The notes beneath the pieces are model-generated. The model was not told where the DNA came from. It saw nothing but the letters and a program-made list of their open reading frames with translations, and ran no database searches. The position numbers and the translations under genes are program-made. Source: an uncultured Methanosarcinales archaeon (lineage in GTDB: Archaea; Nanobdellota; Nanobdellia; Woesearchaeales; UBA10107). From it: DNA of 42,004 bases. Numbering within the stretch: the first letter of the stretch is position 1; every line of letters begins with the position of its first letter. Location of the stretch: positions 1 to 42,004 of the forward strand of contig CAZNFC010000002.1 of assembly GCA_964572885.1 (NCBI GenBank), written 5' to 3'. Positions 3,258 through 33,630 of this stretch are shown here, one piece after another.

Positions 3258-6200
3258 ATGAAAAAAGCGCAATTAACGATGTTTATAATTCTCGGAATTG
3301 TAATTATAAGTATTTTCGGGTTTGTTTTCTTTGCAACAGGGCAAGTTAGAAATATACAGTCTTCAGCCCAGACACAAAAAATAGTCTCTGATATCCTTCA
3401 GTCAACTCCATTGAAATTTTATGTAGGAAGGTGCGCAGATCTGGCTCTAGAATCAGGAATAGACCTGTTATCTAAGCAGGGAGGAAAAATATTTCCAGGA
3501 CAGCCAGGGAATCTATTAAAAAATCCAGAAAAAGCATATGTATATAGGGAAGATTCAAAGAATAAGACTTATGATGTAGCGTATGCAGTACTGAAAGACA
3601 ATACTCCTCTTCCTCAGTATCCATGCAAGATAGGATTTGATAATTATGACAAGCCAGAAGCATACTGCGAATACAGATCAACGATTGAGATCCAGCCAGG
3701 CATATTTGTAAACAATTCAAAATTCAGCAATCTGGATTTCGGAATAGTAAATCTTCCAAGATTATGCAAGAATTCATTCTCCGGATGCACATTCAGAGAG
3801 GGATGGGACACAAGATTCTCTGTGCAGTCCCAGCTGGAGTCATATGTTGCCGATTATATCAAAAAATGTGTAGATTTTGAATCGATTGTCAGCGTGGCAC
3901 AATCATACAATGTTACTGAGGGGGATCCTTCTGCAAATATTACATTCTCAGACACAGAAATTTCTGCAACAATAAATTTCCCGATAATAATTTCACCCAT
4001 AGGAAGCCAGCCGATAATAAATTTATTTAATTTCCAGAGTACAGTCCCGACAAGATTCAAATTGATATACGGTCTTGCCAGAGAAGCAGTCGTAAAGGAT
4101 GTGTCTTCTCCTACTGCTCCGACATATAATCTATTTGAAGGATTGAAACAGGCAATCATTAATAGATTCAAAGGCTCTGACAGCGGACTTTTAGTGGAAA
4201 AGAATGAAAACATAACATCTTACGACAATATAATAAAAATCATAGACACGACAGAGAAAGATAGGAATTCTGTCTTTCAATTTCTCGAGGAAAACAGACC
4301 TCCTGTATTAGAGTATGTGAATCCAAGAGGTAAAATATCTACAAAATGCGGAGAATATGATCTGATTCTGCTTCAGGGACAGAATTTTGATTTTAAACCT
4401 GAAGCTTTCGATACAGAAGAAAATAATATACAATTTAATTATTCAGGCTGGCTGGCTGATTACAATGAAACAATATCCCCTCCATACACTTATGATGAAA
4501 AAGGTTGTGTCATTAATTACGTTAGCAATAAACATAACTTTCTTAATTCTCAGGATAAAAGAGTGAAGCCAAATGGATTGATATCTACTCCGATAGAAAA
4601 AAGTGATACTGGTCCGCATACATTGACCGTATACGCATGCGATTCGCAGTATTGCGACTCTGAAAATGTCAGAGTTTTAGTAGATGATCTATTAGAGGTA
4701 AATGTCAATGGTTCAAACAGGTTCGGAACACAGACATTCTCGATAGAAGATCCTTATTCTTTTTCAGCTGATATAAAAGACATATGGAATCCCGGAAATT
4801 ACCTGTTCTCATGGATAATAAAAGACAGGACAACAAACAATGTAATTTACCAAAATGATTCCGGAGGACAGACAATCAGCCTTCCGTTAGAAAACTATGA
4901 TATTTTCAATATCAAGCAGAAATACATGTCATATAACGGTCAGCCTTTCATACTTACTTCAGGAAAATACACAGCGATAGGAAGCGTAAGCCAGGGACTT
5001 AATCAGCCAATCCAGTCTAATTTTGATTTTGATGTAAAGAACTGCCTTCCTACTCCTGGAAATACAAATCCTCCTTTCCCATATTATGATGGAGATCCAT
5101 TCGATGGAAATCATGCATGCTGTGAGAGTACAGGAGACTTAAGTTCTACTACAAAACAATGTTACACTCCAACTCCGACTTATGGAAGTTTCATGTCATT
5201 TAATACGGATAAATACAAAACACAATATGACGCAGGGCAAACTGTTGCAAAATCAGGAGTAGATTTAGATCAAATAAAAACAAGTTTCGCAACAGGGCAG
5301 GTAACTTCAACAACAAATGACATATTCAAAAGAGTATTCACAAGAAACTGCGATAGAAAAAGAGGAAACATGTGCAACGGAACAATGACAGAAACTTATG
5401 TTGATATTTCTGTTCCAGACAAGCAATCAGGAGAATCAGCAACATGTTTCGGACCTCCAAGAAAATATCTAAAGGCAAACACAATAACCGAGGAAGCACT
5501 TTCATCAACTCCGTCATATGAAAAATATGGAGAGAATCCAACTACAGCAAATCCTATTACGACATTTGAGAAGGAAGTCGGAATAACGAACAGCAGCTCT
5601 TGTAATGATAATAAAAAATGCGTTTCAGACAACAATGCGGCATATGGTTATACCCTAATCGGTCAAAATCCTCATTATGTATGTTCAGCTGCATGCAGCG
5701 TGGATGGATGTACAAGAACAGTTCCAGATCCAAGCATTTGCATAAATTGTTATGATCAACAAGCATGTACATTATCGGACGGAACTCCTGCTCCTACAAT
5801 ACCTACTCCTGGATCAAGAAATTCATTTTCAATAAAACAATTTAATACATGCGTGCAGACAAACAGCTGTCAATACACGACAAGCACGACAGCAGACAGC
5901 TGCAACGGAGACTTCTTGACTGATTACTATTGCAAGCAGGATCTGTCACAGACTGGAACCGTGCTAAATCAGCAGCAGATCAATTGCACAGATTACAACA
6001 GGCAGTCTGCATTAGATGATGGAGACACACCACTTTCAGCAGGAACATGCACTTATTATGATAAAAGCCTATGTTCTAATGGACAGTGCCAGCCGCAAAC
6101 CACTCCTATAAATAAACAGGAAGGAAGGCAGACAAACTCAACAACAAGTGAATATTATTATCAAGAATACATCATAGTAAATAATCAATGCAAGGAGAAA

Positions 6201-6350
6201 GATTACAATTATGACACAAATCCGACACTTTGCACAAGCACAGTATTTGATTGCGCAAGCGGTCCGAAACAAGGAACATATGACGGTTCAAAGCTAAATG
6301 TACAAGATAGATGCATAGGTGATGATTTGTCAGAAAGGCAAACTTGTTGA
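3258..6350 (+). CDS. Giant (1030 aa) surface protein with a class III (prepilin-like) N-terminus, Ig-like modules and a Cys-rich C-terminal half
   Basis: ATG lies 6 nt after the upstream stop. The N-terminus MKKA|QLTMFIILGIVIISIFGFVFFATGQ has a short basic n-region, then [GA]Q, then about 20 hydrophobic residues. Ig/PKD-like segments are present (ENRPPVLEYVNP..., GPHTLTVYACDSQYCDSENVRVLVDD). The last ~450 aa are very Cys/Thr-rich (HACCESTGD, CINCYDQQAC...). Confidence 0.85.
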   Translation: MKKAQLTMFIILGIVIISIFGFVFFATGQVRNIQSSAQTQKIVSDILQSTPLKFYVGRCADLALESGIDLLSKQGGKIFPGQPGNLLKNPEKAYVYREDSKNKTYDVAYAVLKDNTPLPQYPCKIGFDNYDKPEAYCEYRSTIEIQPGIFVNNSKFSNLDFGIVNLPRLCKNSFSGCTFREGWDTRFSVQSQLESYVADYIKKCVDFESIVSVAQSYNVTEGDPSANITFSDTEISATINFPIIISPIGSQPIINLFNFQSTVPTRFKLIYGLAREAVVKDVSSPTAPTYNLFEGLKQAIINRFKGSDSGLLVEKNENITSYDNIIKIIDTTEKDRNSVFQFLEENRPPVLEYVNPRGKISTKCGEYDLILLQGQNFDFKPEAFDTEENNIQFNYSGWLADYNETISPPYTYDEKGCVINYVSNKHNFLNSQDKRVKPNGLISTPIEKSDTGPHTLTVYACDSQYCDSENVRVLVDDLLEVNVNGSNRFGTQTFSIEDPYSFSADIKDIWNPGNYLFSWIIKDRTTNNVIYQNDSGGQTISLPLENYDIFNIKQKYMSYNGQPFILTSGKYTAIGSVSQGLNQPIQSNFDFDVKNCLPTPGNTNPPFPYYDGDPFDGNHACCESTGDLSSTTKQCYTPTPTYGSFMSFNTDKYKTQYDAGQTVAKSGVDLDQIKTSFATGQVTSTTNDIFKRVFTRNCDRKRGNMCNGTMTETYVDISVPDKQSGESATCFGPPRKYLKANTITEEALSSTPSYEKYGENPTTANPITTFEKEVGITNSSSCNDNKKCVSDNNAAYGYTLIGQNPHYVCSAACSVDGCTRTVPDPSICINCYDQQACTLSDGTPAPTIPTPGSRNSFSIKQFNTCVQTNSCQYTTSTTADSCNGDFLTDYYCKQDLSQTGTVLNQQQINCTDYNRQSALDDGDTPLSAGTCTYYDKSLCSNGQCQPQTTPINKQEGRQTNSTTSEYYYQEYIIVNNQCKEKDYNYDTNPTLCTSTVFDCASGPKQGTYDGSKLNVQDRCIGDDLSERQTC

Positions 6351-6392
6351 GAAGGCCTAAAACGTGGATTATAGGTCAAAACAAGCACAACA

Positions 6393-6400
6393 TTTATAAA
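6393..6400 (+). promoter_or_regulatory. Putative TATA box (TTTATAAA) upstream of the 2056-aa gene, followed by a short hairpin
   Basis: It lies in an 86-nt gap, about 37-44 nt upstream of the start codons at 6437-6443. The hairpin GCTAAGT-tcaa-CTTAGC at 6410-6426 sits between the TATA box and the start. Confidence 0.4.
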
Positions 6401-6436
6401 CGAAACTTTGCTAAGTTCAACTTAGCATAAAAGAGT

Positions 6437-9400
6437 GTGATGATGGACAAAAGAGGCCAAATATTAGTGTTATTTATCTTCACGTCTTTCTTATTAATTC
6501 CAAGTTTATTTGCCCAGACACAAGGCGGGTGTTGCGCAACATCTTCTCAAGAAGTTTGTCCTTATGTAAGCTCTCAATCTGAATGTGATGTTTACGGCGG
6601 AACATATAATTCAGGCGTTTCATGTCCCAACACACCGGGATGTGAATTGGTTTGTAAAGTCTGTGAACCAAGATCGGGAACAACAGGAATCTCACAACTT
6701 TTATGGGGAACACCAATAACGGGTTGTGAAGCAGCAGGATCTAATCTTGTTCAAAACGGTGTTGACCTTACAAAAACACAAGATCAATGCCAAGGTACAC
6801 CTTCATCAGCTCTCGCAACAAATCTTCCAGATGTTGAGGGAAGTGTAAAAGATGGAACCACACCGATTGTTGGCGCCATGGTTTGGTGTACAGGAAGTTC
6901 AACAACATCAGTATCTAATGGATATTACAAAGTAGAAAATTGTTCTATCGGAACAAACGTTGTTTATGCAAGATTTGGGACCAAGTCAGGAAATGCATTG
7001 TTATCTCCGGCATTAGGATCTGGAGCAAACGCAGGAGAAACATTAAGGTCTAATGTAAATATACAGCTTCTTGCAGGAAACTCAAAACAAATAACGATAA
7101 GAGCAAGAAACTCAGCATCACCGACCACACCAGTCACAGCATCCATCACAATTCAAAACAATGCATCAGGATTTCAGGAGACAAAGTCAGGAACTGATGT
7201 GATCTTTAATGTAAAACCGGAAATAGTCCTTATTTCAGCATACGCTTCAGGATTCAAACCGATTTTCAATTCAGTTGATTTCACAGCAATATCTGATTAT
7301 ACCGTTCTTATGGAAACGCAACCGACAATAACTTTGAGCGGGTTTACTTTAGATAATTCGGTGACTCCTAATACTATACTCGGCGGAGTTCTTGTTAAAG
7401 CAGTCTCGAATAGCATAATACTTGCTCAAACAACAACAGGAAATGACGGTTCATATTCATTGAATGTCCCAAGCAGCTCATCATTCAGTTTAATTGCAAG
7501 CAAAACAGGATATTCTGATGCTACAATATCAAATTTGATTTATACTTCTGCTTCTACAAAAAATATTTCATTGAGTTCATCAGCAGTTCCTACTACAGCA
7601 ACTGTAAATGTACTTGCTAAAGACCAATCAAGTAATCCTATATCAGGAGTAAGAATAAGACTTGGACAAAACGGACCTATACAGGAAACAGGGGCTGACG
7701 GAAAGACAGTCTGGTCTGGGTTATCTATGGGAAGTTCTTATACTTTTTATGCGCATGCTGATAATTATAACGACGTATTCAAATCAATAACAATAGTTTC
7801 TGCATCATCAAATCTAGATATAACTCTGACAAGCGTTCCGACAATGATTTTAAACGGAAATATCATTAAAACAAGTTGTACAACTTCATGCGGAATATCA
7901 GGCTCACAAGTTGTTATGTCCGATGGTTCAACTACGACAACAGACTCAAATGGAGCTTTCACAATAACAAGAAAAGTAACAAATAAAGTAGAGACGATTT
8001 ATGTAACTTCACCAGGATATCTTCCAAATACTGCAACAATTCCTTCAAACGCCGGGTCAGGGGGAAGTTACGGCCCTGTCCAGATATCACTTACTCCTGC
8101 CTTATGCAATGATGTCAATAATCTTGGAGACATAGCACTCAATTCTCAGGCGATAGAAGACACTATAAAGATAACATGGTCCGCAAGCTGTCCACCTCCA
8201 CAAAATCAATATACAGTCCTTAGAAAACTCGAAGGAGAGCAGTATGTTCCTGTACAATTTGTAACTCAAGCTCCCTTTGAATATAACGAATTGAATGCTG
8301 CTGAAAATAAAACATATTGTTTCAAAGTAACTGCAACTTACAGTAATTTCGGAGGAATAGTCAAGACTTCAAATGAACAATGTGTAAATGTCGGATTCAA
8401 AGAATGTTTTTCTCTTCCTAGCGAATTCTGTTCAGGAAATACAAGAATCACCTGCACAAATAGGACAAATATCCAGCCACTCCCTGCAAACCAACAGTGT
8501 TCTTCTGATCAAATATGCGTAAGAGAATCACAATCTGTAACAAGATGCTTGTCAGCAAATCAATGCGATTTATGCAACAGACCATTTGGAGTATTTTCTC
8601 AGTCGGCATCGTTCATACAATATACTCAGGGAGCATTATTTGGAGGCATATACAGAAACGATACAAATGTATTCGACTGTTCCGTACAGAGCCTAATTTC
8701 GCCTCAGGCAGTAGGATGTTATTTGGACAGCTCAAAGACAGTAGTGGATAAATATGATTCATGCGCAGATGTTAAATCATGCTACGATTACAATTCAGCA
8801 GCAGCATGCGGCCAGAAAAAGTGTACCCCTTCATTAAATTGTCAATGGAGTTCCTATTCAAATTATTCAGATTTTAGAATCGGAGTATGCAAACCAGTCG
8901 GAATCGATTCAAATAAGCAGGACTGTGCAGAATTCAACAATGCATTGACAAGAGGAGGAGGTTTGAGGGATTATATCTTCAATAAAGTATTTTCAGCAGA
9001 AACAGGAAATGTCGCAAAAGAACTTTGTTCATTATATGGCGATGCTTGTTTCTACAAGGCGAGTACTCAATCATGTTTGAACAAAGATCAAGTAACTTGT
9101 TATGATTATGGAAGTTCCCAATCTGAATGTGAAGGAGCAGCAGGACAAAGCAACCCTGTCAACATAAACGTCACTTGGGGAGCAATACCTGGACAGGGAG
9201 TGATAAAAAAGAGCGGAAGCAACAAAATACTGCAAAGAAGCAATGATGCAGTAGGAATAGGATTATGCAGGTTCACTAATACCTGCATAAAGGATGCTGA
9301 TAAAAGTCTGTCTTCTGACTGCGATCCATCAGATGCAAGCTGCGGTCTTGATGTAAGTCCTCCGAATACTTCAATAGATTATACTGAATATGTAAACTCG

Positions 9401-12400
9401 ACATCTCTTAGCTATACTGCAGTTGATGATAAATCAAGTCAGCAGTCAATAAGGACATACTCACACGTAATCAGGACTACACTTCTCCAGTCGGCTTTAT
9501 TGCAGAAATATCCTTATCAAAGCGAACAGGCACAGAACGGAAAAACTTTAGATCTTCCTTGCGCGGGATTAGTAACACCTTCTAATGAAGGAGATAACTG
9601 CACTATGCTTTATTTCTCAGAAGATTCTTCACATAATCTCGAAGAAGTAAAAAAAATAAATTTCATATTAGACACAGTGAGGCCGAATATCACTGCAACA
9701 TATTCGATAAAACCATATCCTCTTGACAATAAAGTAGATTTGACAGTCAATCTTAAATTAGGAAAAGACTTCCAAGGTTACTGCGTAGATTCTCCAGAGT
9801 TAGGTCTTTGTGTTCAGGGAAGAACATGTCCCGAAATGCCATTTATATCAACAATAGGTATTCCTGGAAATCCAAATGAATGGAGTGCCACATATAGAGA
9901 GATTCCTACCGGCGATAATGGAGTTCCTGCAACATTTTCATGGAGATGTTATGATAAGGCAGGAAATAAAGCAGAGGATCCGTCAAGCATACAGTTAAGT
10001 TTAGATGCAGATGGAATAATATCAAATCCGAGTTTAGTAACGACAAAATCAGGAGTGCCTGTTCCTATTTATGTTCACACACAAAATCCAGGTTCATGCA
10101 GATATATAGATATATCACAAACAGGAAAACCTTTCGATCAATGGACTCCATTTGATAATGTTGATACAATAAGTGAGGGGAGTGATTACAAATACAGTTC
10201 CACTATTCCTTCGCTGTCAGGTTCAAACGAAAGATACAGGTTCAAAGTTAAATGTAATCTTACTGATGTGTCAGATTTGGTAGAAGGAAGAGACAGTGAT
10301 GATATAAGAATAACAATTGATGATAAACCTCCTGTAACACAGCCATATACTTTAGAAAAAGGAGATTACTCTTTTACAAATCCTCAATGGCTAAGTACTC
10401 CTTCATTAAGATTAAGATGTGCAGATGCTCCGCAAGGAGATTTGGAATATCCTCATGAAATAGGATGCCTGGGACTCTCATATTGCCTGAACAATTATGC
10501 ATCTCCTGCAGAAACTCCATGTACTTTAGTTCAAAGTTCTCCTGATGTACTTATAGACTTGTCAGGAAAAGATTCAGCTGTGTTAAGTTATTCTTCATCT
10601 GATAAATTAGGAAATGTAGAGACGGGAAGTCCTAAACAACAATTATTGCTTCTTGACTATATGCCTCCTGTCCTGAATTTAAATTATCCTCTGAATACTA
10701 CATTCATAGTTCAGAAAGAAGGATACGTGACACTATCAGGATTTGTAAATAATTTAGGTCCTGATGGATGTGTCGGAAGTTCATCTATCTCTCCAAATGG
10801 ATGCTTATCATCACCATTGAGCAGTATTTATTACGAACTAAGATACAGGACTCAGCCAACTTTAACAGAGCATCAGCTTAATGAGACGATACAACAGTCA
10901 GGATATGGAACGATAAATATACCTACAAGAACTATCGTATTGAAAGATAATAAAGTGAATGAATTAAGCATTATTGCAAGAGATCAGGCAGGCAATCCAA
11001 GCAGCACAATACCGATAGTCATAGTACATGACAGCTTAGGTCCCAATATATCGCAGGCCACAATAAATGGAAACGATATCAACTCATCAATTAATGTTCC
11101 ATTCGGACAAGATTACGATTTGTCTATAGGAAATCTGAAAGATATATACCCAGATTCTGCTGACTTATTTTCAAGAGTAGATTCAGTCTGGGTAAAAGAT
11201 ATGTTCGGAGCAAAATATAATCTGCATAGGAGCGGAACAGTATGGGTCGGAAAGATAAAGACAGGAGTATGGCCTATAACAACATCAGCATTCAGAACAT
11301 TCATAACTGTATTTGCAAATGATACTTTAGGAAATCCTGAGGAGAAACCGATTCAGGTTAATATCGTAGTCAAAGATACCACACCTCCGGTTGCTACATA
11401 CAAGTTTGAAAACTCATACGGAGAGAATGTAAATCAATTAGTTAAAGGATTGAATTATATGGTTCTTCAGGCATCTGAAACATTGGATAATCTCAGTATG
11501 AATCTGACATCAATAGATAATCCAAGCATACAATACAAAGTAAGGTTTGTTGCAAGAGACTTTGATGCGGTGACGTGGATAGGAATCATAAATGTAACGG
11601 ATACAGTTACCCCTCTTAGGGCAGCAGGAATAATGTACGATTCAAATGGACTCAACTCATCGGATTTCACCCATATTTCAGGTTCAGTAAACGTAGATAT
11701 AAATCCTTTAGAGATAACTGAGCCAATACCTTTAGGAGCTATCCCTAACGATGGCATATATTATGTCATTGAAAGGCCTGTAATATATAGTACGTTAGGA
11801 TTCTCAAATCAGTTCAATGTAAATGGAGTCATATCGACTTCAAATCCTGTTTCAGGACTAAACTTAGGAATTAATGATGTCACAATCAGAGTAGAGGATG
11901 ATTCAGGAAATTATAAGATATTCAATCAAAAAGTATTCGTGAACTCGACATCATCATTATCTTCTTCAGGAGATTCAGTTCTTAATATAGTAACAAAACC
12001 ATTAACTAACGCAGATCCTTTGTATGCAGAAGTTCATGTTTCCGGAGGATCTCCAGTTTCAGCACCAAACATATTCTTAGATGGAAACTCATTATCTCTA
12101 ACGAAATTAGATAACGGATCGTATTATTACAAACAGACAAGAACTGATATATCTGAAGGAGCGCATACAATCACATCTGTTGTAACGAGTCAGGGACCTC
12201 TGCAAGTATCAGCATCACCTGTTCAAATAAATGTGGATAGACATGTACCAGGAATAAGCAGCATATCTGCAAACGATTTAAGCAATGTGAAGCTGATTGA
12301 TTCTCAGATTACTTCAAGAAACCAGACTTTGGACCTGGTCAGCTATTATAATGATTCAGACATATCAGAAGCTTATGTAATAGGAGATGATGGGGCTAAA

Positions 12401-19418: not shown

Positions 19419-20279
19419 GTGGTTGAATTCAAAGCAGTTGCGATGTATATTTTGGGAGCAGTAGTTGCTTTGCTTCTGTTTACATTTTTGAGAGATTTCG
19501 GATTGACGACACAGGGTTTAACAGAGGATCAGATATGCAGGCAAAGCGCAGAAGCAAACGCAGATTTTAGGTTTGAAAAACTTCCAAATAATATAGAGGT
19601 AAAATGTCCGACTTTATTCATCAAAGTCGATTCAGCAGAGCAGAATGTTGTCTTTGAGAATCTTGCGAGATCTTTAGCATCGACTTGGGATGAGATGTTG
19701 TTAGGAGAAAAAAACATATTCGATGTCCAGGACCAGAATTTTTGTGTTATAAGGAGAGTCTTGGAGTTCAAGACAGCAAATAAATACAAAGGATTCTTTG
19801 ATTATTTAGTCCAGAATAATCCTCCTTCATTGCAGCAATCTTATTTTAGATACCTTACAAATGTTGATATGAATCAAAATAAAGAAACTATCAGCTCAAA
19901 TACCAATTTGAAGAATTCTGACATTATAGATACTTCAACTCCTTATGTGGCAGTGTTTGTAATGTCAAAAAAAGCAAATATAGGCAAATTTACAGCAACT
20001 GGAATAGGAGCTGCGACAGGAGTTGCAGGAGGAACAGTTCTTGGAACCTCGATAGGATTCTTTTTGAGCGGAGCAGGAACTCCGATAGGTATTGTTCTAT
20101 TAGGAGGAAGTGCTGTCACAGCTGCAGGAACTGCGTTAGGAGGCACAGCTGGTTATATATTGGGTTCAGAATCTTCAGCAGACTGGGATTCAGCAATGAT
20201 GTTAATTCCTTATACGACCGAAAGCTTGAATAGCCTGAAATGCACTAAACTGCCGGCTTCACCACCGAAACTAAAATAA
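19419..20279 (+). CDS. Paralog of the 18477-19418 product: N-terminal hydrophobic helix + globular domain + glycine-zipper segment, 286 aa
   Basis: GTG start immediately after the upstream TAA. N-terminus MVEFKA|VAMYILGAVVALLLFTFL. C-terminal segment GIGAATGVAGGTVLGTSIGFFLSGAGTPIGIVLLGGSAVTAAGTALGGTAGYILG. Motifs align with the neighbour (QQSYFRYL vs QQTYFEAL, NFCVIRRV vs VNCLVCSDV). Confidence 0.75.
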   Translation: MVEFKAVAMYILGAVVALLLFTFLRDFGLTTQGLTEDQICRQSAEANADFRFEKLPNNIEVKCPTLFIKVDSAEQNVVFENLARSLASTWDEMLLGEKNIFDVQDQNFCVIRRVLEFKTANKYKGFFDYLVQNNPPSLQQSYFRYLTNVDMNQNKETISSNTNLKNSDIIDTSTPYVAVFVMSKKANIGKFTATGIGAATGVAGGTVLGTSIGFFLSGAGTPIGIVLLGGSAVTAAGTALGGTAGYILGSESSADWDSAMMLIPYTTESLNSLKCTKLPASPPKLK

Positions 20280-20318
20280 ACAAGAACTAAACAAATACTA
20301 TATGAAGGTATGGGATAC

Positions 20319-20477
20319 ATGAAAAAAATAAAGAAAGCTCAAGTTGAGGAATCACTCGTGAAAGTCATATTCTATTTAGCGTTGCTCGTGGTTCTAATCT
20401 TTATTGTCTGGTATCTGCTTTCAGGAAGGGCTCCGGAATTATTCAAAAGCATAACGGATAAACTGAGGTTTGGATAA
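20319..20477 (+). CDS. Mini pilin-like ORF (52 aa), not in the supplied ORF track
   Basis: My own translation gives MKKIKKA|QVEESLVKVIFYLALLVVLIFIVWYLLSGRAPELFKSITDKLRFG. Its TAA (20475-20477) shares one base with the next ATG (20477), a TAATG coupling. Confidence 0.55.
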   Translation: MKKIKKAQVEESLVKVIFYLALLVVLIFIVWYLLSGRAPELFKSITDKLRFG

Positions 20478-21403
20478 TGGTAGAAGAAGCAGTTAAAAAG
20501 ACAACAGCACTTGCTATTGCTTTGTTTTTATTGGTAGTCTTGATTTTTGTTGGAATAAACCCATTATATTCAGCTTTCAAATCTTTTTTGTCTATAGGTC
20601 AGCTTGAAAATCCTGAAGTGGCGCAACTTAAGCAGCAGTGTGATGATTACGTAAATATTCATGGAGCAACAGATGGCTGCGCACTTAATGTTGCTGCAAA
20701 AATAGTGGAAACTAATGGAGACTTGTTTGTGGCGCAGAGTTTCCTTAAAAAAGAGATAGAATCTACTAATGACCAGAAAATATTAAATAAATGTTTCGAG
20801 TTTGCAAGGGATGACTTGTATCCAAAATCAAAAGATTGGGAAGGCGCATTAGGTATCTACAACGAATTATTTGATAAATTAAAAACAAGAGATGTCATGA
20901 TTGCAAAAGATGAAGCGCAGCTTAATGTATACATAAATCAAGTTTCTCAGATATATTCGAAGCTTAAGTATCCGGTATCGAGCAGAGATGATTATGGAGC
21001 TAATGCCAATTTCCTTGCAGTAAATCAGGAATTAGTCCCAACAATCAAGAAAGCATTGAAATTGTATAACGGCAATAAAGAGAAATTGAATGTCGAGCAG
21101 TTTTATTTCAATGATTACAAAGGAGATGATGTTTGTAACGCATTATATGCAGCAACCGGTGCACAAGATAATGCTTGTAATATCTATGCAAGAGCTTCTT
21201 TAGATTATGGATGCTTCAGACAGGCAGGATTATGCAAATCTTGTACATCATATCATAAAGCAGGTGTGGATGCATGTAGCGGCTATGACAGCGAGGATGC
21301 ATGTAAAACAGATCCTTGTAATGCAGGAGACTGCTCTTGGACAGGGTTTATAGGTTCATGTAAGTCTGTTAGGGGCACGGTTAACTACTGGGATTTGAGC
21401 TAA
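20477..21403 (+). CDS. N-terminally anchored protein with a helical middle and a Cys-rich C-terminal module, 308 aa
   Basis: N-terminus MVEEAVKKTTALAIALFLLVVLIFVGINPLY is a TM helix without a clear [GA] cleavage motif. The C-terminus is ...CKSCTSYHKAGVDACSGYDSEDACKTDPCNAGDCSWTGFIGSCKSV. Confidence 0.8.
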   Translation: MVEEAVKKTTALAIALFLLVVLIFVGINPLYSAFKSFLSIGQLENPEVAQLKQQCDDYVNIHGATDGCALNVAAKIVETNGDLFVAQSFLKKEIESTNDQKILNKCFEFARDDLYPKSKDWEGALGIYNELFDKLKTRDVMIAKDEAQLNVYINQVSQIYSKLKYPVSSRDDYGANANFLAVNQELVPTIKKALKLYNGNKEKLNVEQFYFNDYKGDDVCNALYAATGAQDNACNIYARASLDYGCFRQAGLCKSCTSYHKAGVDACSGYDSEDACKTDPCNAGDCSWTGFIGSCKSVRGTVNYWDLS

Positions 21404-21744: not shown

Positions 21745-22008
21745 ATGAAATCCAAGAAGGGCGTAGAGATTGCAATGAACGTTGTAATCATCTCCGTAAT
21801 TGCCTTATTGGTTTTAGTTGTTGTGGTATTTATCTTTGCTGGGAAGACCCAGTCTTTTTCAAAAGGAGTCTCTGATTGTATAAGTTTGGGCGGCACTTGT
21901 GAAGACAGAAATTGTCTCACATTATTGCCTCCAAGACCGTCAATTCCAAATGGAGATTGTACCAAAGCGCAGGATGAAGTCAGGTATTGTTGTTCTAAAA
22001 TACAATGA
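21745..22008 (+). CDS. Small type IV pilin-like protein with a six-Cys C-terminal domain, 87 aa (paralog 2 of 3)
   Basis: N-terminus MKSKKG|VEIAMNVVIISVIALLVLVVVVFIFAG. The C-terminal domain is C-x6-C-x4-C-x14-C-x9-CC with a GG before the second Cys. Confidence 0.85.
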   Translation: MKSKKGVEIAMNVVIISVIALLVLVVVVFIFAGKTQSFSKGVSDCISLGGTCEDRNCLTLLPPRPSIPNGDCTKAQDEVRYCCSKIQ

Positions 22009-22262
22009 GAAATAAGAAAGGATTTGAGATGACAATAAGTGTAGTTGTAGTCTTAGTGATATCTTTGATTTTATTGTCAGTCGGAATATACATAATATAC
22101 ACAAAAATATTGAAGCCTTCTGAGACGGCAAATTCATTCCTGAATTGCGAAGACAGGGGAGGAGAGCCAGGCTGCACAGGAAAAACAGGTGGGTTATGTG
22201 TCAAGCTTCCAACAAGGACGTCCAAAGACCCTGTAGATTGTTATATCAAAGAGCTAAAATGA
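22005..22262 (+). CDS. Small type IV pilin-like protein with a four-Cys C-terminal domain, 85 aa (paralog 3 of 3)
   Basis: ATGA overlap with the upstream gene. N-terminus MRNKKG|FEMTISVVVVLVISLILLSVGIYIIY. C-terminal domain CEDRGGEPGC...C...C. Confidence 0.8.
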   Translation: MRNKKGFEMTISVVVVLVISLILLSVGIYIIYTKILKPSETANSFLNCEDRGGEPGCTGKTGGLCVKLPTRTSKDPVDCYIKELK

Positions 22263-22897
22263 GCAAAGGTTCATTAAACATATCTCTGGAGACCGTCATA
22301 GGGTTGGTCTTGGCAGCAATAATCATTCCAGGATTATTTTTCTTTTCAGTCAATCTTCTTGATTTAGTGACCAATAAACCGGAACAATCGACATTGAACG
22401 GATTTGACGGGTTGATGATAAAGATTAACCAGTTGGTCGATGGAACATTAAATAATGCAGGAAACACGGATAAAACTTTCATAGATGTTCCTTATTTTAT
22501 ACAAAATGATTACGGACTTATAGGATTTGACAGTAATTTTGTGCATCAGACATGCGGATTAAGAAATATAGATCTCAAAAAACCAATTTCATGTCTTCCT
22601 AGACAGGATGCTTGTTTTTGTCTCGACAAATCAGGATGGGGATTAGATGACGTTCAAAATTGGCAGAAGTGTCAGACTATAAAAGATGTAAGATATGTAT
22701 ATGTCACAAAAGAATCGGTATCAAACAGCGGAACAAAGCATGATTCTATTTCAGAAGGCAATAATCTTGCCTTATGGAGCGGCTGCGATCAAGGAACTTT
22801 CGGAGTCAAGAACATCAGGATATCAAAAATAAAGGCAAGAGAGGACAGTAAAATATATGATTTAGTGTTCCAGATACCATCTCCAATTACGAGCTAA
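22259..22897 (+). CDS. Pilin-like protein (class III-like N-terminus), 212 aa
   Basis: The track ORF starts at 22145 inside the upstream gene. The ATG at 22259 forms an ATGA overlap with the upstream stop and gives MSKG|SLNISLETVIGLVLAAIIIPGLFFFSV. Confidence 0.7.
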   Translation: MSKGSLNISLETVIGLVLAAIIIPGLFFFSVNLLDLVTNKPEQSTLNGFDGLMIKINQLVDGTLNNAGNTDKTFIDVPYFIQNDYGLIGFDSNFVHQTCGLRNIDLKKPISCLPRQDACFCLDKSGWGLDDVQNWQKCQTIKDVRYVYVTKESVSNSGTKHDSISEGNNLALWSGCDQGTFGVKNIRISKIKAREDSKIYDLVFQIPSPITS

Positions 22898-22931
22898 AAG
22901 CTTTTAAAGCATAGATTCTAATTCCTTATAT

Positions 22932-23465
22932 ATGCAAAAGAGAGGAGCGACAACCATGCAGTACTTCGTGGTTTTTGAAGCTCTGCTCGCTGTTTTTATC
23001 ATAATTGCACTTCTGAGTTATGTGCATAGTGTCGCAGCAGGTTCATTATTTGAGCAGAATTTCTTGGCCAGAGATGTCGGGTTGACGATAGACAGCTTAT
23101 ACGCATCCCCTGGAGAAATAAATATGATTTATGATTCAGATATAAAGGAAAATGCAGTATTTGATATTCCTATCTTAACATTTGCACCAGAGACTAAGCT
23201 CAGATTTGCATTTGAGAAATCAAGAGTTCATGTTTTCAGAGACTCATCAGGAGAATTATACCAGAATCCTGCTACATATGCTTTCGGAGAAGATTATAGG
23301 ATCAAATTTAATACTCCTCAGGAAGGAGACGCAAATAAACTAAATAGGAACGCTCAGGGATATGAAATCCCTAATACAAAAAGCAATTTGCTTATCAAGA
23401 ATTCTAACGGAATATTATCGGTCGAGTTTACAGAATTAAACAAAAACGGTGTGAATAATGGATAA
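22932..23465 (+). CDS. Pilin-like protein (class III-like N-terminus), 177 aa
   Basis: N-terminus MQKRG|ATTMQYFVVFEALLAVFIIIALLSYV. A TTTTAAAG element at 22902-22909 lies about 27 nt upstream of the ATG, which could mean an internal promoter with a leaderless start. Confidence 0.75.
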   Translation: MQKRGATTMQYFVVFEALLAVFIIIALLSYVHSVAAGSLFEQNFLARDVGLTIDSLYASPGEINMIYDSDIKENAVFDIPILTFAPETKLRFAFEKSRVHVFRDSSGELYQNPATYAFGEDYRIKFNTPQEGDANKLNRNAQGYEIPNTKSNLLIKNSNGILSVEFTELNKNGVNNG

Positions 23466-23970
23466 GAAGGCGCAGGAATCGTTTTCAATATTATTGATCA
23501 TTCCAAGAATGATATTCCTGATAATAGTGATGTTCTCAATATATTTTCTTATAAGAGCATATGTCGTGTCCAAGCTGGACGTTCAGGATGTCCAAGTGGA
23601 TGTTTTCATCAATAAAGTTTTATACTCCCCTAACGGCATCTCATATTATGACCGCGATTTAAAGAGAAGCATCCCTGGTCTGATTAATCCGAGTTCGATT
23701 ACTGACGATAATTTAAACAAGCTGGCGGATTACGATGACAGCTCATTTATCTCTGCAAAAATACAGTTAATCGACAATGACAGCAAAGAAATTACTTCTG
23801 CATTATATAACGGAGAGACTTATTCGAGATGGTTGCCTGTAGCGACAACAGGAGTTCCAGGTCCAGGCGGATATAAACAAACGATTAAATCAGTTTATGT
23901 TAATTTCTTAGACCAAAACAAAATAAGGGAGGGTACATTGAAGTTTGATGTACTGATACCCGGAAGTTAA
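23458..23970 (+). CDS. Pilin-like protein (class III signal peptide), 170 aa
   Basis: 8-nt overlap with the upstream gene. N-terminus MDKKA|QESFSILLIIPRMIFLIIVMFSIYFLI. Confidence 0.8.
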   Translation: MDKKAQESFSILLIIPRMIFLIIVMFSIYFLIRAYVVSKLDVQDVQVDVFINKVLYSPNGISYYDRDLKRSIPGLINPSSITDDNLNKLADYDDSSFISAKIQLIDNDSKEITSALYNGETYSRWLPVATTGVPGPGGYKQTIKSVYVNFLDQNKIREGTLKFDVLIPGS

Positions 23971-23971
23971 A

Positions 23972-24472
23972 ATGAATAAAAAAGCGTCTATACCTGCAGC
24001 AATTGTGGACATAATAGGATACGGGGTGTTTGCATTAATTTTGGTTATATTCTTTTTCTTTTTTAATATAAGCGCAAAAACAACGACTCAGGAGATAAAA
24101 CAGGTTCAATTCAATGAAGTTACAGGAGAGCAATTTTTACTGAATTACATCAGGCATCCTGTATATATTCCAAATCAGGAACCGATAACGATGGCTGATT
24201 TTATTGCTTTGAAGTATGAAAAAGGAGAGACTGTGCAGCTGCGAAATGAGTTAGATAAAGATCTGAAGGAAATACTGGGCAAATCAGGATACGCACAGTT
24301 TTATTTCGTCATGTCAGACGGGAAAATAACTGAGAGAATAAATGAAATTCCTTCTTCTTCATTGTCTTCTTTAGGATTAGGCGGTCTGCCTGTAACAATT
24401 CCAAAGAGCGACGGCACACAAATAGGCATGTGGTTATTTTTATATACACAAGGGAGTCAAGCAAATGGATAA
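23972..24472 (+). CDS. Pilin-like protein (class III-like N-terminus), 166 aa
   Basis: Starts 1 nt after the upstream stop. N-terminus MNKKA|SIPAAIVDIIGYGVFALILVIFFFFF. Confidence 0.75.
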   Translation: MNKKASIPAAIVDIIGYGVFALILVIFFFFFNISAKTTTQEIKQVQFNEVTGEQFLLNYIRHPVYIPNQEPITMADFIALKYEKGETVQLRNELDKDLKEILGKSGYAQFYFVMSDGKITERINEIPSSSLSSLGLGGLPVTIPKSDGTQIGMWLFLYTQGSQANG

Positions 24473-26576
24473 AAAAGGATACGTATTTGTACCATTCATA
24501 GTTATCGGGACATTCTTTGTGCTTACATTCGCATTGTTAGTATTATCCAAGAAATATGAAGTCCGAGATTCTGAAGGAAATCAGAGATTTGTAGGAGAAA
24601 AACAGTCCCAGATATTCCTTGCATATCAAAAAGGAGAGAATGCGTTATTCTATATCTCTCAATCTGCAAGATACTCTGCGCAAAGCACGATAACAAAACT
24701 TGCAGCAAACGAATCAGGATGCGATACCATATTCGGATATGGTGTGTGGGTCACCAAAACAGCGAATTGTATTCCGAACAAAATTTCAGCAGAAAATAAA
24801 TTTAAAGAAGAATTTAAGGACAGGTTAGCTTCTTTCACATCTAAATATAGTGATGCAGCAATACCTACTTTCGATAATTATGATATTTCTTCACAGAATG
24901 ATAAATTAAAAATAATAGGAGATTCATCGTCAGATTTAATTATAAGTACATCAAAGCTTTATTCCAATGTCCTTGTCACTCATTATTACGCACCATCTGA
25001 AAAAGATTTCTCAACATGGTACACAGCTGAAGATTACACAAAGTATCCTGGAAATGAGATAGAAAGCTGGTGTGCTATACCGATGGAAAAGAGAGGATTT
25101 TTCGAGGAAGTCAAATGTGAAGGAGCAGGTGTAGGAATTTCAGGGACGATATATAATTATAAGACAATCAAGCCGACAAAAGAATCAAGTACCACTACAG
25201 ATAAAATAAGTACTGCTACAGGAACGGTGGCGACACCTCACAGAACAATAGCCGTTGCTCCTGATATGATACCTTATGGTTCAAAAGTAGATGTGGAATT
25301 CGAAGGATGCACTCAGAATAGTTGTTGCAGCCAATGGAATGGAGAATATATTGCAGAAGATACAGGAGTGGCGATGCAAAATGACTGGAAACTTGGAAAG
25401 CCTCATATAGACTTATTTGTAGGAACAGGTCTTGATCAGCTCAAGCAATCTGAATGTCTTCCTGGCGGAGAGGTAAACAAGGCAGCACTAATTGTGAAGC
25501 AGAAGGGAGGGCTTTCAACAGGAGACATCATATATAGATTAAAACCTGCATTCAAATCAGAAATAAATTATTCATTTGATGAATATGATAAATTAGGAGC
25601 AGATATTTTGAGTATATCTGAGGAGACCACACACAGATCTGAATGCAATAAAAAAGAATCAAAAGATGAATGTATTAAGGAAATACTTAATAGATATAAT
25701 GATTTCAAATGGAGTCTGAAATGTGACATATCTGATCTTGATGCTGATAAATATCCTCAATATCTATTTTTATGTGCAGAATCAAGATACGGAATTCCTA
25801 CAGATTCGGGAATTAAACATTACATCTACAAGATTGCTTATTTCGCAGGTGATGATGTGGCTCCTGCACAAGTGACAGGGATAACGACATCAGATACACA
25901 ATTAGCAGAGAAGAAAGTCACAATCTCTTTCAATGCAAATACAGAACCGGATGTAGCTTATTATGATATTTATCATTCAGAAAATCCCTTCACAGATGTA
26001 AGTAACTCTGAGAAGTATGACTTGATGATAAATCAAGACCCTTCAAAGACATCATATGATCAAATATTAGATGTTCCTCAAGATGGAAAACAATATTATT
26101 TTGCTGTCACGGCCGTTGATACTACTGGAAATGAAAATACCCAGGTAGTTTCTGTACAGGGAACATCCACAGATGACTTAAAGCCGGGACCAATTAATGG
26201 AGTAACTGTCAATAGATTAAGCCAGACAAATCCTTTCTTAGATGTTTATGTAAATCACCCAACAACAAATGAAGATGGTTCAAAGGTAACAGACGTGACA
26301 AAATACACGATTTATTTCTCTGACTCAGATGTTTGCGACCAATATCATATAAGCAGCATATTGAATGATTACATAGATAAGCAGGACTATTCATTCGAGA
26401 AGACAACCAATCAGGGTTCAGATGTCGATAAGATAGTCCAGCCGCAGCCTCAATTACCAAAATTTGCCAATTCCAAGACATATTGCATGGTTGTAATAGC
26501 AGGAGATGACGGTCCTGACAAAGAACCGACGTCAAATCAGTACGGAGCAAATAGTTTCAAGGAAATAAAGACGTAA
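24465..26576 (+). CDS. Pilin-like N-terminus fused to an MltA/3D-type (lytic transglycosylase-like) domain and two FN3-like modules, 703 aa
   Basis: 8-nt overlap with the upstream gene. N-terminus MDKKG|YVFVPFIVIGTFFVLTFALLVL. The central region is THYYAPSE...CEGAGVGISGTIYNY...TATGTVATPHRTIAVAPDMIPYGSKVDVEF...YIAEDTGVAMQ...HIDLFVGTG. The C-terminal FN3-like modules are APAQVTGITTSD...YYFAVTAVDTTGNEN and KPGPINGVTVNR...YCMVVIAGDD. Confidence 0.85.
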   Translation: MDKKGYVFVPFIVIGTFFVLTFALLVLSKKYEVRDSEGNQRFVGEKQSQIFLAYQKGENALFYISQSARYSAQSTITKLAANESGCDTIFGYGVWVTKTANCIPNKISAENKFKEEFKDRLASFTSKYSDAAIPTFDNYDISSQNDKLKIIGDSSSDLIISTSKLYSNVLVTHYYAPSEKDFSTWYTAEDYTKYPGNEIESWCAIPMEKRGFFEEVKCEGAGVGISGTIYNYKTIKPTKESSTTTDKISTATGTVATPHRTIAVAPDMIPYGSKVDVEFEGCTQNSCCSQWNGEYIAEDTGVAMQNDWKLGKPHIDLFVGTGLDQLKQSECLPGGEVNKAALIVKQKGGLSTGDIIYRLKPAFKSEINYSFDEYDKLGADILSISEETTHRSECNKKESKDECIKEILNRYNDFKWSLKCDISDLDADKYPQYLFLCAESRYGIPTDSGIKHYIYKIAYFAGDDVAPAQVTGITTSDTQLAEKKVTISFNANTEPDVAYYDIYHSENPFTDVSNSEKYDLMINQDPSKTSYDQILDVPQDGKQYYFAVTAVDTTGNENTQVVSVQGTSTDDLKPGPINGVTVNRLSQTNPFLDVYVNHPTTNEDGSKVTDVTKYTIYFSDSDVCDQYHISSILNDYIDKQDYSFEKTTNQGSDVDKIVQPQPQLPKFANSKTYCMVVIAGDDGPDKEPTSNQYGANSFKEIKT
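24975..25435 (+). other. MltA-like + 3D-domain (double-psi beta-barrel) segment within the 24465-26576 CDS
   Basis: The motif order matches my recollection of the family pattern: T-x-Y-Y-x-P, [ST]A[ST]G, R-T-I-A-V-x-P-x-x-I-P-x-G-S, A-E-D-T-G-x-A, I-D-L-F. Two of the three signature Asp are in place. The first is shifted (IAVAPD rather than IAVDP). Confidence 0.6.
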
Positions 26577-26673: not shown

Positions 26674-27669
26674 ATGATAAAAGTGCCTTACGAAGACATT
26701 ATTGCAAAAATAACAGAAGTTTCTAACATTTCTGAAACAGAACTAAATACCAAGATAGAAGAAAAGATGAATGAGCTCTCAGGTTTGGTATCAAAAGAAG
26801 GAGCGGCTCATATAATCGCAAATGAACTCGGAGTCAAGATCCAGGAGCAGGATGCTGGAAGATTGGTTGTCGATAAGCTTCTTCCAGGGATGAGGTCAGT
26901 CGAGTTTGTCGGAAAGGTCCAGAAAATATTTGAGATAAGAAAATTCGACAAAGGAAACAGGAAAGGACAAGTACAATCAATTGTCGCAGGAGATGAGACT
27001 GGAACAATAAGAGTGGTTCTTTGGAATGATCAAGTGGAGAAGATCCAGACGTTAAAAGAAGGAGATTTAGTAAGGATAGAAAATGCATATATAAAAGAGA
27101 ATCAAAATCAAAAAGAGCTTCACCTTGGAGAAAATTCAAGATTAGAGATAAATCCTCCCGGGGAAGAGATAAAAGAAGTCAAGATTGTCCAGCCATTGAA
27201 AAGCAGGAAAAAAATAGAAGGTCTGCAGGAGAATGACAATAATGTAGAGATTCTTGGAACGATTGTGCAGACTTTCGATCCGAGATATTATGAAATATGC
27301 TCCTCATGCAACAAAAGAGCAAGGCTTGCTCCTGGAGGATCAGATTACATCTGTGAGGAACATGGAAGAGTGCAGCCAAGATATTCATATGTGCTGAATG
27401 CTATAATTGATGATAGTTCAGGTACAATAAGAACAGTATTCTTCAAGAATCAGGCTGAAAACCTGACTGGAAAAAGCGAAGAAGAATTCATCCAGATGAG
27501 AGATAAAAAAGAAGTGATGGAACAGTTAAAGACGGATTTGCTCGGTGAAATCGTCAAAGTGGTAGGAAGAACCGCAAAGAACACAATGTTCGACAGGCTT
27601 GAATTCATTTCTCAGTTAGTATTTCCTAATCCTTCTCCTGAAGAAGAATTAAGGATGATTGAAGAATAA
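26674..27669 (+). CDS. Replication protein A (RPA/RFA-like ssDNA-binding protein) with OB folds and a Cys4 zinc element
   Basis: The N-terminal helical region VSKEGAAHIIANELGV is followed by an OB-fold pattern (VEFVGKVQKIFEIRKF...GQVQSIVAGDETGTIRVVLWND...GDLVRIENAYIKEN). A second OB carries CSSCNKRA...YICEEHG. Confidence 0.75.
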   Translation: MIKVPYEDIIAKITEVSNISETELNTKIEEKMNELSGLVSKEGAAHIIANELGVKIQEQDAGRLVVDKLLPGMRSVEFVGKVQKIFEIRKFDKGNRKGQVQSIVAGDETGTIRVVLWNDQVEKIQTLKEGDLVRIENAYIKENQNQKELHLGENSRLEINPPGEEIKEVKIVQPLKSRKKIEGLQENDNNVEILGTIVQTFDPRYYEICSSCNKRARLAPGGSDYICEEHGRVQPRYSYVLNAIIDDSSGTIRTVFFKNQAENLTGKSEEEFIQMRDKKEVMEQLKTDLLGEIVKVVGRTAKNTMFDRLEFISQLVFPNPSPEEELRMIEE

Positions 27670-28228: not shown

Positions 28229-28395
28229 GAAATGACATTATATTATATTATGTCTGAAAAAGGCAATACTCTTTGAGCGAATTCACGGCACTCAAGCCAA
28301 AAATGCTCAACAAAGGAGTACTCCATTGAAACAAAACGCGAACCCGAAAGGGAGTGGCTGAAAAATTTCAGTTTACCAGCAAGGAGGTATTCAAA

Positions 28396-28671
28396 ATGGA
28401 AAACAAAAAAGGACCTGAAAAGGTTTTTTCAACAGGTGCGATACAGGTGGCTGTATGGCGAAATGATTCTGTATCAAAAGACGGTTCAAAATCCGAATTT
28501 AGGACAGTAAATCTTCAAAGAAGGTATGCTGACAAAGCAGGCGAATGGAAATCGACTTCTGTGATGAGAGTTAATGATCTGCCTAAAGCTGCATTAGCTT
28601 TGAACAAAGCATTCGAATATCTTGTCATGAAAGGGCAGGATTCAGAATTCATCGAAGAAATCGTGGTGTAA
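28396..28671 (+). CDS. Small conserved-looking protein, possibly a PC4/YdbC-like ssDNA-binding fold, 91 aa
   Basis: The track start 28354 is GTG. The ATG at 28396 lies 7 nt after a strong AAGGAGGT. The pattern RTVNLQRRYADKAGEWKSTSVMRVNDLPKAALALNKAFEYL parallels the PC4 core (R-E-Y-x-D-x-x-G-E-x-K...S-L...helix) as I remember it. Confidence 0.6.
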   Translation: MENKKGPEKVFSTGAIQVAVWRNDSVSKDGSKSEFRTVNLQRRYADKAGEWKSTSVMRVNDLPKAALALNKAFEYLVMKGQDSEFIEEIVV

Positions 28672-33629: not shown

Positions 33630-33630
33630 A

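Follow-up and report, generated by a model that had tools for sequence, protein, structure and literature searches.

The 42,004-nucleotide (nt) stretch analyzed here, which we call the window (contig CAZNFC010000002.1, recorded as an uncultured Methanosarcinales archaeon), carries on its + strand a gene (24465..26576) for a 703-amino-acid (aa) surface protein whose central module resembles the MltA lytic transglycosylases of bacteria. We suggest that the product is a compact MltA-family lytic transglycosylase on an extracellular, disulfide-rich surface protein, held in a filament or in the membrane and acting on the bacterial wall, and we put the probability of this reading at roughly 60%. The module is a "mini-MltA" of ~180 aa from which most of domain B is absent, and its predicted fold is an MltA-type double-psi beta-barrel. 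To judge from the alignments, the active-site set of T172, Y174, D299, and D316 is kept under strong purifying selection. Because the gene closes an operon of pilus-subunit-like genes, the protein probably serves the archaeon in attaching to bacterial hosts or in breaching their cells.

A first-pass annotation, made by a model from the letters of the window, had reported this open reading frame (ORF) and its motifs, and their positions proved exact when key codons of the 703-aa ORF were checked individually. The frame opens with ATG (MDKKGYVFVPFIVIG) and contains VTHYYAPSE (with T172 at nt 24978), CEGAGVG (aa 218-224), TIAVAPD (aa 261-267), YIAEDTG (aa 295-301), and HIDLFVGTG (aa 314-322; nt 25404-25430). 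The gene shares its first 8 nt with the end of the preceding gene, GGGAG stands ahead of its start, and the G+C content of the gene (0.36) is the same as that of the rest of the window. The full-length AlphaFold2 (AF2) model of the protein has a mean predicted local distance difference test score (pLDDT) of 83.9. The gene and its parts are as follows.

24465..26576, + strand: the whole gene, encoding the 703-aa surface protein with a class III-type N-terminus, an N-domain, the mini-MltA module, a middle domain, and two FN3 modules
24465..24554, + strand: aa 1-30, the basic leader MDKKG and then a hydrophobic helix of ~25 aa (from the sequence; AF2 helix at aa 3-30), with a putative cleavage site after G5
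24555..24953, + strand: aa 31-163, an alpha/beta N-domain in which C86 and C102 are nearly invariant in the alignments
24954..25499, + strand: aa 164-345, the compact MltA-type module, a predicted double-psi beta-barrel (Pfam 3D, Foldseek, PDB profile, and hhalign)
24978..24986, + strand: T172-H-Y174, the "TxY" strand, aligned by HMMER with "FTGYYTP" of 2ae0
25257..25259, + strand: A265, at the position of the first 3D Asp (MltA D261) in the alignments to 6qk4 and 2ae0
25359..25361, + strand: D299, equivalent to MltA D297 in the alignments to MltA
25410..25412, + strand: D316, equivalent to the catalytic Asp (MltA D308) and aligned with "HFDIY" of 2ae0
25500..25856, + strand: aa 346-464, a middle alpha/beta domain with conserved Cys (AF2 secondary structure and alignment)
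25857..26573, + strand: aa 465-703, two tandem FN3-like beta-sandwich modules (~aa 465-575 and 576-703; Foldseek)

Pfam 3D (PF06725) matched aa 260-324 with 30.0 bits against a gathering cut-off of 23.8 (E=6.2e-7); it also matched 14 of 14 close relatives at E<=1 (best, 2.3e-12) and 72 of 77 further representatives of the family at E<=0.001. Comparison of the full-length model with the PDB gave FN3 matches only, so a second AF2 model was made for aa 1-350 (pLDDT 83-95 over aa 165-335). With this model, ranks 1-14 of the Foldseek search against the PDB were all MltA-family lytic transglycosylases (E from 8e-7 to 2e-2), led by B. pseudomallei LtgG (6qk4, 8e-7) and E. coli MltA (2pi8, 2.9e-6; also 2ae0, 2gae, 2pic, and 2pjj) and including MltA-family enzymes of A. 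baumannii, C. crescentus, A. tumefaciens, and N. gonorrhoeae. Below the MltA structures, and with non-significant E-values, came generic double-psi beta-barrels (barwin, kiwellin, and Cel45). A diverse profile was needed to find the same family from sequence: a single-sequence search of the PDB gave noise, a profile of 14 close relatives reached MltA only at E=1.4, and a profile of 37 diverse modules matched 6qk4 at E=5e-9 and 2ae0 at 4e-8, with YuiC weak at E=0.1. Comparison with E. coli MltA by hhalign gave a probability of 96.7% over the 3D part. No SLT or lysozyme-like family matched the 703-aa protein or any of the 77 representatives, and the window holds no second copy of the module.

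The first-pass annotation had read the motif order as MltA plus 3D and had named profile and structure searches as the way to check it; those searches bear out the 3D domain and the MltA-type fold. The Pfam MltA family (PF03562, domain B) did not follow, since it matched none of the 14 close-family members at E<=1, and the segment from the TxY strand to the 3D region spans ~80 aa versus ~140 aa for MltA domain B. That segment reads "GFFEEVKCEGAGVG..TIYNY" (family consensus "GFYEDVKCQGSGV") and resembles MltA "NFIMDVQGSGYIDF..NFFSY". We regard its "CEGAG/CQGSG" hairpin, which is flanked by C203 and C218 (~90% conserved), as the putative counterpart of MltA "VQGSG" at the level of motif and fold; neither HMMER with its filters off nor hhalign paired the QGSG-like hairpin with E. 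coli MltA. The module is the best-conserved part of the protein, with a mean column identity of 58% versus 30% overall in the close-family alignment.

Active-site residues were mapped with the help of the alignments and of the E. coli MltA sequence, and their conservation was counted over 105 divergent modules that are often only 30-40% identical to the one in the window. T172 corresponds to MltA T99, YuiC T91, and LtgG T128 (conserved in 91% of modules), and Y174 to MltA Y101, YuiC Y93, and LtgG Y130 (96%). D299 corresponds to MltA D297 (96%), and D316 to MltA D308, YuiC D162, LtgG D343, and Bd3285 D321 (94%). The position of the catalytic Asp is confirmed by the D308A mutant chain of 2pi8, which reads "HFAIY" where 2ae0 reads "HFDIY". 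The Thr of the TxY strand orients the catalytic Asp (PMC4499186, PMC6667503), MltA D297 binds the -2 N-acetylglucosamine (GlcNAc) at its N-acetyl group (PMC4499186), and the third Asp is the only 3D Asp shown to be essential in the accessible literature (PMC4499186, PMC10127604, PMC6667503).

Pfam describes the 3D domain by three Asp residues (MltA D261, D297, and D308); the second (D299) and the third (D316) are present here, and the first is Ala265. IAVAPD in place of IAVDP had already been noticed in the first pass, with the suggestion that the displacement of the first Asp could alter activity or reduce it to binding. The loss is real: HMMER aligned A265 with the first 3D Asp of both LtgG ("IAVDP") and E. 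coli MltA ("SVASD"). The rest of the suggestion is not favored: Asp267, the supposed displaced Asp, is not conserved across the family, and the catalytic residues are 91%-96% kept. Across the 105 modules the first-Asp position is N in 53, D in 25, and A in 12. Because this position varies family-wide, A265 is no argument for inactivity; that the family dispenses with the first Asp and retains its catalytic residues speaks for an active enzyme and against a binding relic.

An extracellular location is consistent with the N-terminal hydrophobic helix, the 14 Cys of the 703-aa protein, and its FN3 modules. The two C-terminal FN3-like modules described in the first pass are real at the level of fold, tandem-FN3 structures being the top PDB matches of the full-length model (Foldseek, E~2e-8). 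Pfam fn3 did not match the 703-aa protein itself and matched one relative among the 77 representatives. The FN3 pair is probably a spacer or adhesion region. For the N-domain (aa 31-163), where confidence in the half-length model is low, there was no Pfam match, no PDB sequence match by profile, and no pilin among the Foldseek matches. The middle domain (aa 346-464) has an extra insert of ~140 aa in several relatives.

The gene is a resident chromosomal gene of a DPANN-type archaeon and not a recent acquisition, because its neighbors are archaeal, its GC content is like that of its surroundings, its synteny is conserved, and it has no viral relatives. RPA lies directly downstream (26674-27669), followed by YdjM, RadA (28718), RadB, ribosomal protein S2, and topoisomerase VI A/B. 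Loci of relatives were sought with two conserved peptide patterns of the module in one genome per species (185,579 species). All 17 loci recovered lie in metagenome-assembled genomes (MAGs) labeled Woesearchaeota, Nanoarchaeota, unclassified "archaeon", or "uncultured Methanosarcinales". The archaeal host named in the first pass is therefore well founded, on the RPA, RadA, RadB, and topoisomerase VI A/B genes of the window and on 17 of 17 loci of Woesearchaeota/Nanoarchaeota type. As a tiny symbiont of the DPANN/Woesearchaeota type, this archaeon itself has no cell wall of the bacterial kind.

The closest locus (L001; OZ246410.1) lies on a 774-kb chromosome and has the same gene arrangement as the window; its RadA and RPA are 83.5% and 69.6% identical to those of the window, and its ortholog of the 703-aa protein is 42% identical, versus 70%-84% for RPA/RadA. 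The order of cluster, enzyme, and RPA is conserved across genomes in which RPA is only 40%-70% identical. Two other origins were considered and rejected. A viral origin fails on IMG/VR, whose viral contigs held no relatives of the archaeal module, on phage sequence matches that were confined to partial 3D matches in SPO1-like phages, and on the conserved chromosomal synteny. Bacterial contamination or a chimeric contig fails on the archaeal housekeeping genes at both sides, the uniform GC, and the same arrangement in the 774-kb chromosome.

The wider family counts 541 representative clusters when the cut-off is E<=1e-3 and 129 when it is E<=1e-10, with members of up to 2,149-2,788 aa. In locus L003, the protein in the same genomic slot (P0010; 3444-6656) has an Amidase_2 domain (E=1.6e-28) between its N-domain and its mini-MltA module. 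Among the 77 further representatives, fusions to Amidase_2 occur in six (seven members in total with P0010), to Peptidase_M23 in two, and to Peptidase_M15_4 in one; none has a chitin-binding or pseudomurein-binding domain. Because the fused partners are families annotated as cutting murein peptide stems, we infer that bacterial murein is the most likely substrate, favored over pseudomurein. The first-pass annotation had proposed action on another cell's wall, made of either polymer; the fusions lend support to the bacterial version and not to pseudomurein. Where Amidase_2 precedes the mini-MltA module, a single class III-type protein would unite two murein-degrading enzymes. Other family members carry GDSL lipase/esterase or FGE-sulfatase domains.

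The enzyme gene comes last, and is translationally coupled, in a seven-gene operon (21745-26576) with junctions of -4, -4, +34, -8, +1, and -8 nt. Its surroundings upstream are as follows.

21745..24472, + strand: the six upstream operon genes, of 87, 85, 212, 177, 170, and 166 aa, all with a K/R-rich leader, G or A, and a hydrophobic helix
3258..21403, + strand: a larger co-directional cluster, with giant surface proteins of 1030, 2056, and 1045 aa and seven genes of 166-398 aa

Homologs of the upstream operon genes occur in the same order in L001. The N-terminus of the 703-aa protein has the class III (prepilin-type) form, MDKK-G followed by YVFVPFIVIGTFFVLTFALLVL, and most genes of the 3258..21403 cluster have the same class III-like N-terminus. 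Among relatives that bear such a leader, G or A invariably fills position -1, and position -2 is K or R, with a single H. G or A stands right after the last K/R before the hydrophobic helix in 13 of the 16 cluster ORFs that could be scored (background 12%, P~5e-10), and by eye the same [KR][GA] motif is present in 15 of 17. Seven cluster ORFs have Q at +1, and the one clear Sec-type signal (12617) is without the [KR][GA] motif. About a quarter of 158 representatives have a class III-like N-terminus by a crude regular expression, which also catches some Sec and lipoprotein signals (e.g., P0013). At 11 of the 17 species-level loci, a co-directional cluster of such ORFs ends with the enzyme gene and RPA usually comes next; this terminal position is kept even where the N-terminus of the enzyme differs. 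Hence, the pilin-type N-terminus claimed in the first pass stands as a class III form common to nearly all cluster genes, and does not stand as a match to a pilin family or fold. Surface display via this N-terminus is well supported as a reading of the sequences. Incorporation into a filament is plausible, and we hold it as a tentative, minority view.

The first two operon genes (21745-22262, + strand) overlap and encode paralog-like proteins of 87 and 85 aa, each built from a leader, then a hydrophobic helix, then a small Cys-rich head (~45 aa, with 6 and 4 Cys, respectively); their identities with the L001 proteins are 44% and 61%. We consider them candidate major filament subunits and the other four candidate minor subunits. 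Upstream of the small-ORF cluster, at 51-15754 (+ strand), are giant ORFs of 1066, 1030, 2056, and 1045 aa, which probably encode giant adhesins of the same surface system. The 1066-aa ORF has no in-frame stop upstream of its start and is possibly longer. Two of the giant ORFs open with a class III-like motif (MKKA followed by QLTMF..., and DKRG followed by QILVLF...). CarboxypepD_reg-like domains occur in the 2056-aa protein, and bacterial TSP3 (Ca-binding) repeats in the one of 1045 aa.

We infer the processing of the protein, its filament or tip location, its cleavage chemistry, and its bacterial target as follows. The protein would be exported and then probably cleaved after Gly5 by a class III signal peptidase, and its hydrophobic N-terminal helix would hold it in the membrane or in a type-IV-filament-like structure of the operon's small subunits. 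By analogy with modular pilins, its most plausible place within a filament would be the tip. Once a bacterial cell is touched, a glycan strand would be bound in the module's groove, with D299 contacting the -2 GlcNAc, and D316, oriented by T172, would cleave the beta-1,4 bond between N-acetylmuramic acid (MurNAc) and GlcNAc to leave 1,6-anhydroMurNAc. A local opening in the sacculus would let the archaeon anchor itself, get inside, or draw out material. The middle domain and the FN3 pair may act as spacer or adhesin, and the extra amidase/endopeptidase modules of relatives would cut peptide stems. Pili-like appendages of ultrasmall cells extend into their hosts (PMC7906910). A "drill-tipped pilus", in which a pilin-like tip subunit carries a peptidoglycan-cutting enzyme on a DPANN filament and relatives deploy a two-enzyme cassette, would get wall-less archaea through bacterial sacculi; we think this version of the scheme more doubtful than probable.

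Several points weigh against the proposal as a whole. On the side of the filament, no pilin family of Pfam or NCBIfam matched the 703-aa protein or its neighbors, no pilin structure was matched, and genes for a filament ATPase, a platform protein, and a class III peptidase are all missing from the 42-kb window; in archaea, pilin genes often lie apart from the assembly machinery. Non-pilin proteins of archaea, for example those that bind substrates, can also bear class III signals, in some loci the enzyme starts with an ordinary signal or anchor, and the pilin reading draws only on a short motif and on gene neighborhood. On the side of catalysis, the first 3D Asp is absent (A265), Ala221 apparently takes the place of MltA S164 (the Ser of QGSG), a ligand of the -2 sugar, and most of MltA domain B is absent. 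Domain B supplies a helix proposed to stabilize the reaction intermediate; YuiC is without it yet active (PMC4499186).

Some of these points would be met by an uncleaved N-terminal signal-anchor, which would make the protein a type II membrane protein with the same muralytic enzyme, no filament, and neighbors that are unrelated small membrane or surface proteins. The missing pilin matches and assembly genes fit such an arrangement, as does the plain hydrophobic N-terminus of the enzyme in P0008, P0012, L006, L008, and L016. A plain anchor needs no processing site, however, yet the -1 G/A is kept in all leader-bearing relatives, and the [KR][GA] pattern of the cluster genes, with its frequent Q at +1 and its absence from the Sec-type signal, speaks for a signal of another kind. 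The arrangement would also put the catalytic module near the archaeon's own membrane and the FN3 modules distal to it, which is awkward for reaching another cell; we regard it as unlikely, though deserving of serious attention. If instead the module were a degenerate 3D/double-psi beta-barrel domain that grips glycan strands, the protein would be a non-catalytic wall-binding adhesin. The replacement of the first Asp by Ala265 and of the putative S164 equivalent by Ala221 would then be explained, and NCBIfam gave weak matches only, to the "cell wall-binding protein" entries EntA, EntB, and EntD. Such an adhesin is hard to reconcile with four active-site residues that persist across modules of such low identity, the first-Asp position varies family-wide, including in members fused to active-looking amidases, and the third Asp alone is known from the accessible literature to be essential; we think a pure adhesin improbable.

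The catalytic reading could also hold for a glycan other than murein, namely chitin or another GlcNAc polymer, pseudomurein in the wall of a methanogen host, or an envelope polymer of the archaeon itself that has to be opened for its appendages. In favor of such a reading, bacterial secretion and pilus systems apply dedicated lytic transglycosylases to their own wall. A GT2 glycosyltransferase gene with weak chitin-synthase similarity lies 5.8 kb downstream, followed by a gene for a membrane-anchored thioredoxin-like protein (32385-34275, + strand); the pair is syntenic in L001, and a GlcNAc-containing polymer is a possible product of it, a point of relevance to the idea of a self-made glycan. 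Chitohexaose is a ligand of MltA, and YuiC can cut penta-GlcNAc, with an anhydro product (PMC4499186). RPA, YdjM, RadA, and other housekeeping genes separate the GT2 gene from the operon, however, and the MurNAc-L-Ala amidase and the M23 and M15 peptidases fused to relatives cut bonds of the murein peptide stem; with pseudomurein- and chitin-binding domains missing from the 77 representatives, we judge another glycan to be quite improbable. Peptidoglycan has been proposed as an amino-acid source for Pacearchaeota (PMC11537232) and DPANN biosynthesis is very limited, so the enzyme might simply degrade free peptidoglycan or dead bacteria for amino sugars and amino acids, with no specific host contact. 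Against such scavenging, the protein is tethered and not freely secreted, its gene is coupled to a surface/appendage-like cluster in 11 of 17 loci, genes for uptake or for the recycling of anhydro-muropeptides are missing from the neighborhood, and its fast evolution relative to RPA and RadA is as expected of a host-interaction protein. We consider scavenging highly improbable.

Among known systems, the MltA-family lytic transglycosylases (2AE0/2PI8, 6QK4, and N. gonorrhoeae MltA 2G5D) of CAZy family GH102 are the nearest. They share with the archaeal module the double-psi beta-barrel, the motif order (TxY strand, QGSG-like hairpin, 3D region), and the conserved residues (the catalytic and -2 Asp and the Thr/Tyr pair), and they are its best structural and profile matches. 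The archaeal module differs in its length (~180 versus ~340 aa), in the absence of most of domain B, in the replaced first Asp, and in having no lipobox; it also has conserved Cys pairs and belongs to a multidomain surface protein of 703 aa whose N-terminus is class III-like. A "stripped-down MltA" with T-x-Y and two functional Asp is likewise seen in B. subtilis YuiC and the firmicute Sps proteins (PMC4499186), whose activity without domain B indicates that this domain is dispensable. Unlike the archaeal module, YuiC keeps all three Asp, forms a domain-swapped dimer, has no QGSG-like hairpin insert, and is a bacterial autolysin.

Three further systems resemble the proposed function. Bd3285 of Bdellovibrio bacteriovorus is a secreted MltA-like enzyme that acts on prey peptidoglycan (septum) and needs its third Asp (PMC10127604); it is, in contrast, a bacterial lipoprotein with a disordered N-terminus, all three Asp, and no link to pilin-like genes. 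Gp12.1 of Bacillus phage SPO1 ("tail protein with lysin activity") is the best viral structural match (E=3.7e-6) and also places a muralytic 3D module on a fiber or tail that pierces the bacterial wall from outside, but it is a viral structural protein, and the match is limited to the 3D part, 34% of the archaeal module. Modular type IV pilins (e.g., Streptococcus sanguinis PilB; >1,200 bacterial examples) combine a class III signal and helix with a grafted module, are encoded with other pilin genes, and are predicted to sit at the filament tip (PMC8179133). They differ in being bacterial and of IPR012902, with modules that are mostly lectin/vWA adhesins and one peptidase type, and no muralytic module or archaeal example is mentioned in that paper (PMC8179133). 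The pilin module of the archaeal protein is putative only.

That Woesearchaeota and Pacearchaeota have murein lytic transglycosylases of extracellular type is an idea already in print. Rinke 2013 and Castelle 2015 reportedly described DPANN murein transglycosylases earlier. The idea is thus anticipated in the literature, which tempers the novelty of the present case. The published proteins come from the same organisms, have the same predicted role (bacterial host walls), and are large and extracellular; unlike the family described here, they are equated in one paper with GH23, which has a lysozyme-like Slt fold unrelated to MltA (PMC11537232). The transglycosylase domain of DPANN proteins was left unnamed by Castelle et al. 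(2021), and it is possible that the mini-MltA family overlaps with their fam00969. No class III N-terminus, pilin-like operon, or residue-level analysis is mentioned in the published DPANN-transglycosylase papers. In the searchable literature we found no assignment of a DPANN enzyme to the MltA/3D family with residue mapping, no compact architecture that lacks domain B as well as the first Asp, no class III-type N-terminus or conserved terminal place in a prepilin-like operon, and no fusions of a DPANN MltA-type module with murein amidases or peptidases.

Few genomic features hint that some Woesearchaeota and Pacearchaeota live on bacteria, and enzymes that degrade murein are one of them. This locus makes the hint concrete, with a conserved MltA-type module whose predicted active site is intact and which is tied to a prepilin-like cluster. 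If the filament reading is true, bacteria would be the hosts of many Woesearchaeota, and cross-domain episymbiosis would gain a molecular mechanism; the "modular pilin" principle would be extended to archaea and to an enzymatic, wall-breaching payload. A compact, disulfide-stabilized module without domain B and the first Asp also informs what the minimal MltA catalytic unit may be.

Some members of the family have other arrangements. P0128 (681 aa) has an N-terminus much like that of ORF 3258 and its mini-MltA module at the C-terminus. A subfamily of P0013-P0016, P0022, P0023, P0033, and P0038 (e.g., L007 7708-9690) also has the module at the C-terminus, in proteins of ~590-775 aa whose N-terminus is lipobox-like (LFTAC, LASC, LTSC); their large, conserved N-terminal region opens with "KY.GT.G" and is not annotated in Pfam. 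Family members that have no KKG-type leader often show an [ILV]TG-x-[AV][TIV] motif a few residues past the N-terminal hydrophobic segment (P0024, P0036, P0039, P0041, P0042, P0047, P0056, P0059, P0064, P0078, P0093, and P0115, among others). It occurs in 17 of 158 proteins, ~15 of them convincing, with ~0.02 expected per segment of that size, and may signal processing or sorting in these archaea.

The adjacency of the surface-protein cluster to a replication gene is unexpectedly stable, RPA lying directly 3' of the mini-MltA gene in L001, L003, L005, L006, L008, L009, L013, L015, L016, L020, and the window. MAGs labeled "uncultured Methanosarcinales archaeon" (L001/L004 OZ246410.1; L006, L007, L011, and L017) have DPANN-type content, and the complete 774-kb chromosome OZ246410.1 is closest in gene order and RadA/RPA to the window and to Woesearchaeota MAGs; the "Methanosarcinales" label of such records looks like a placeholder or misassignment. 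A sigma-70 promoter and terminator scan found no enrichment, and the sigma-70 model does not apply to archaea. Between YdjM and RadA lies a small, conserved 105-aa ORF with a GTG start (28354-28671, + strand) and no family match; a 91-aa ORF occupies the same place in L001.

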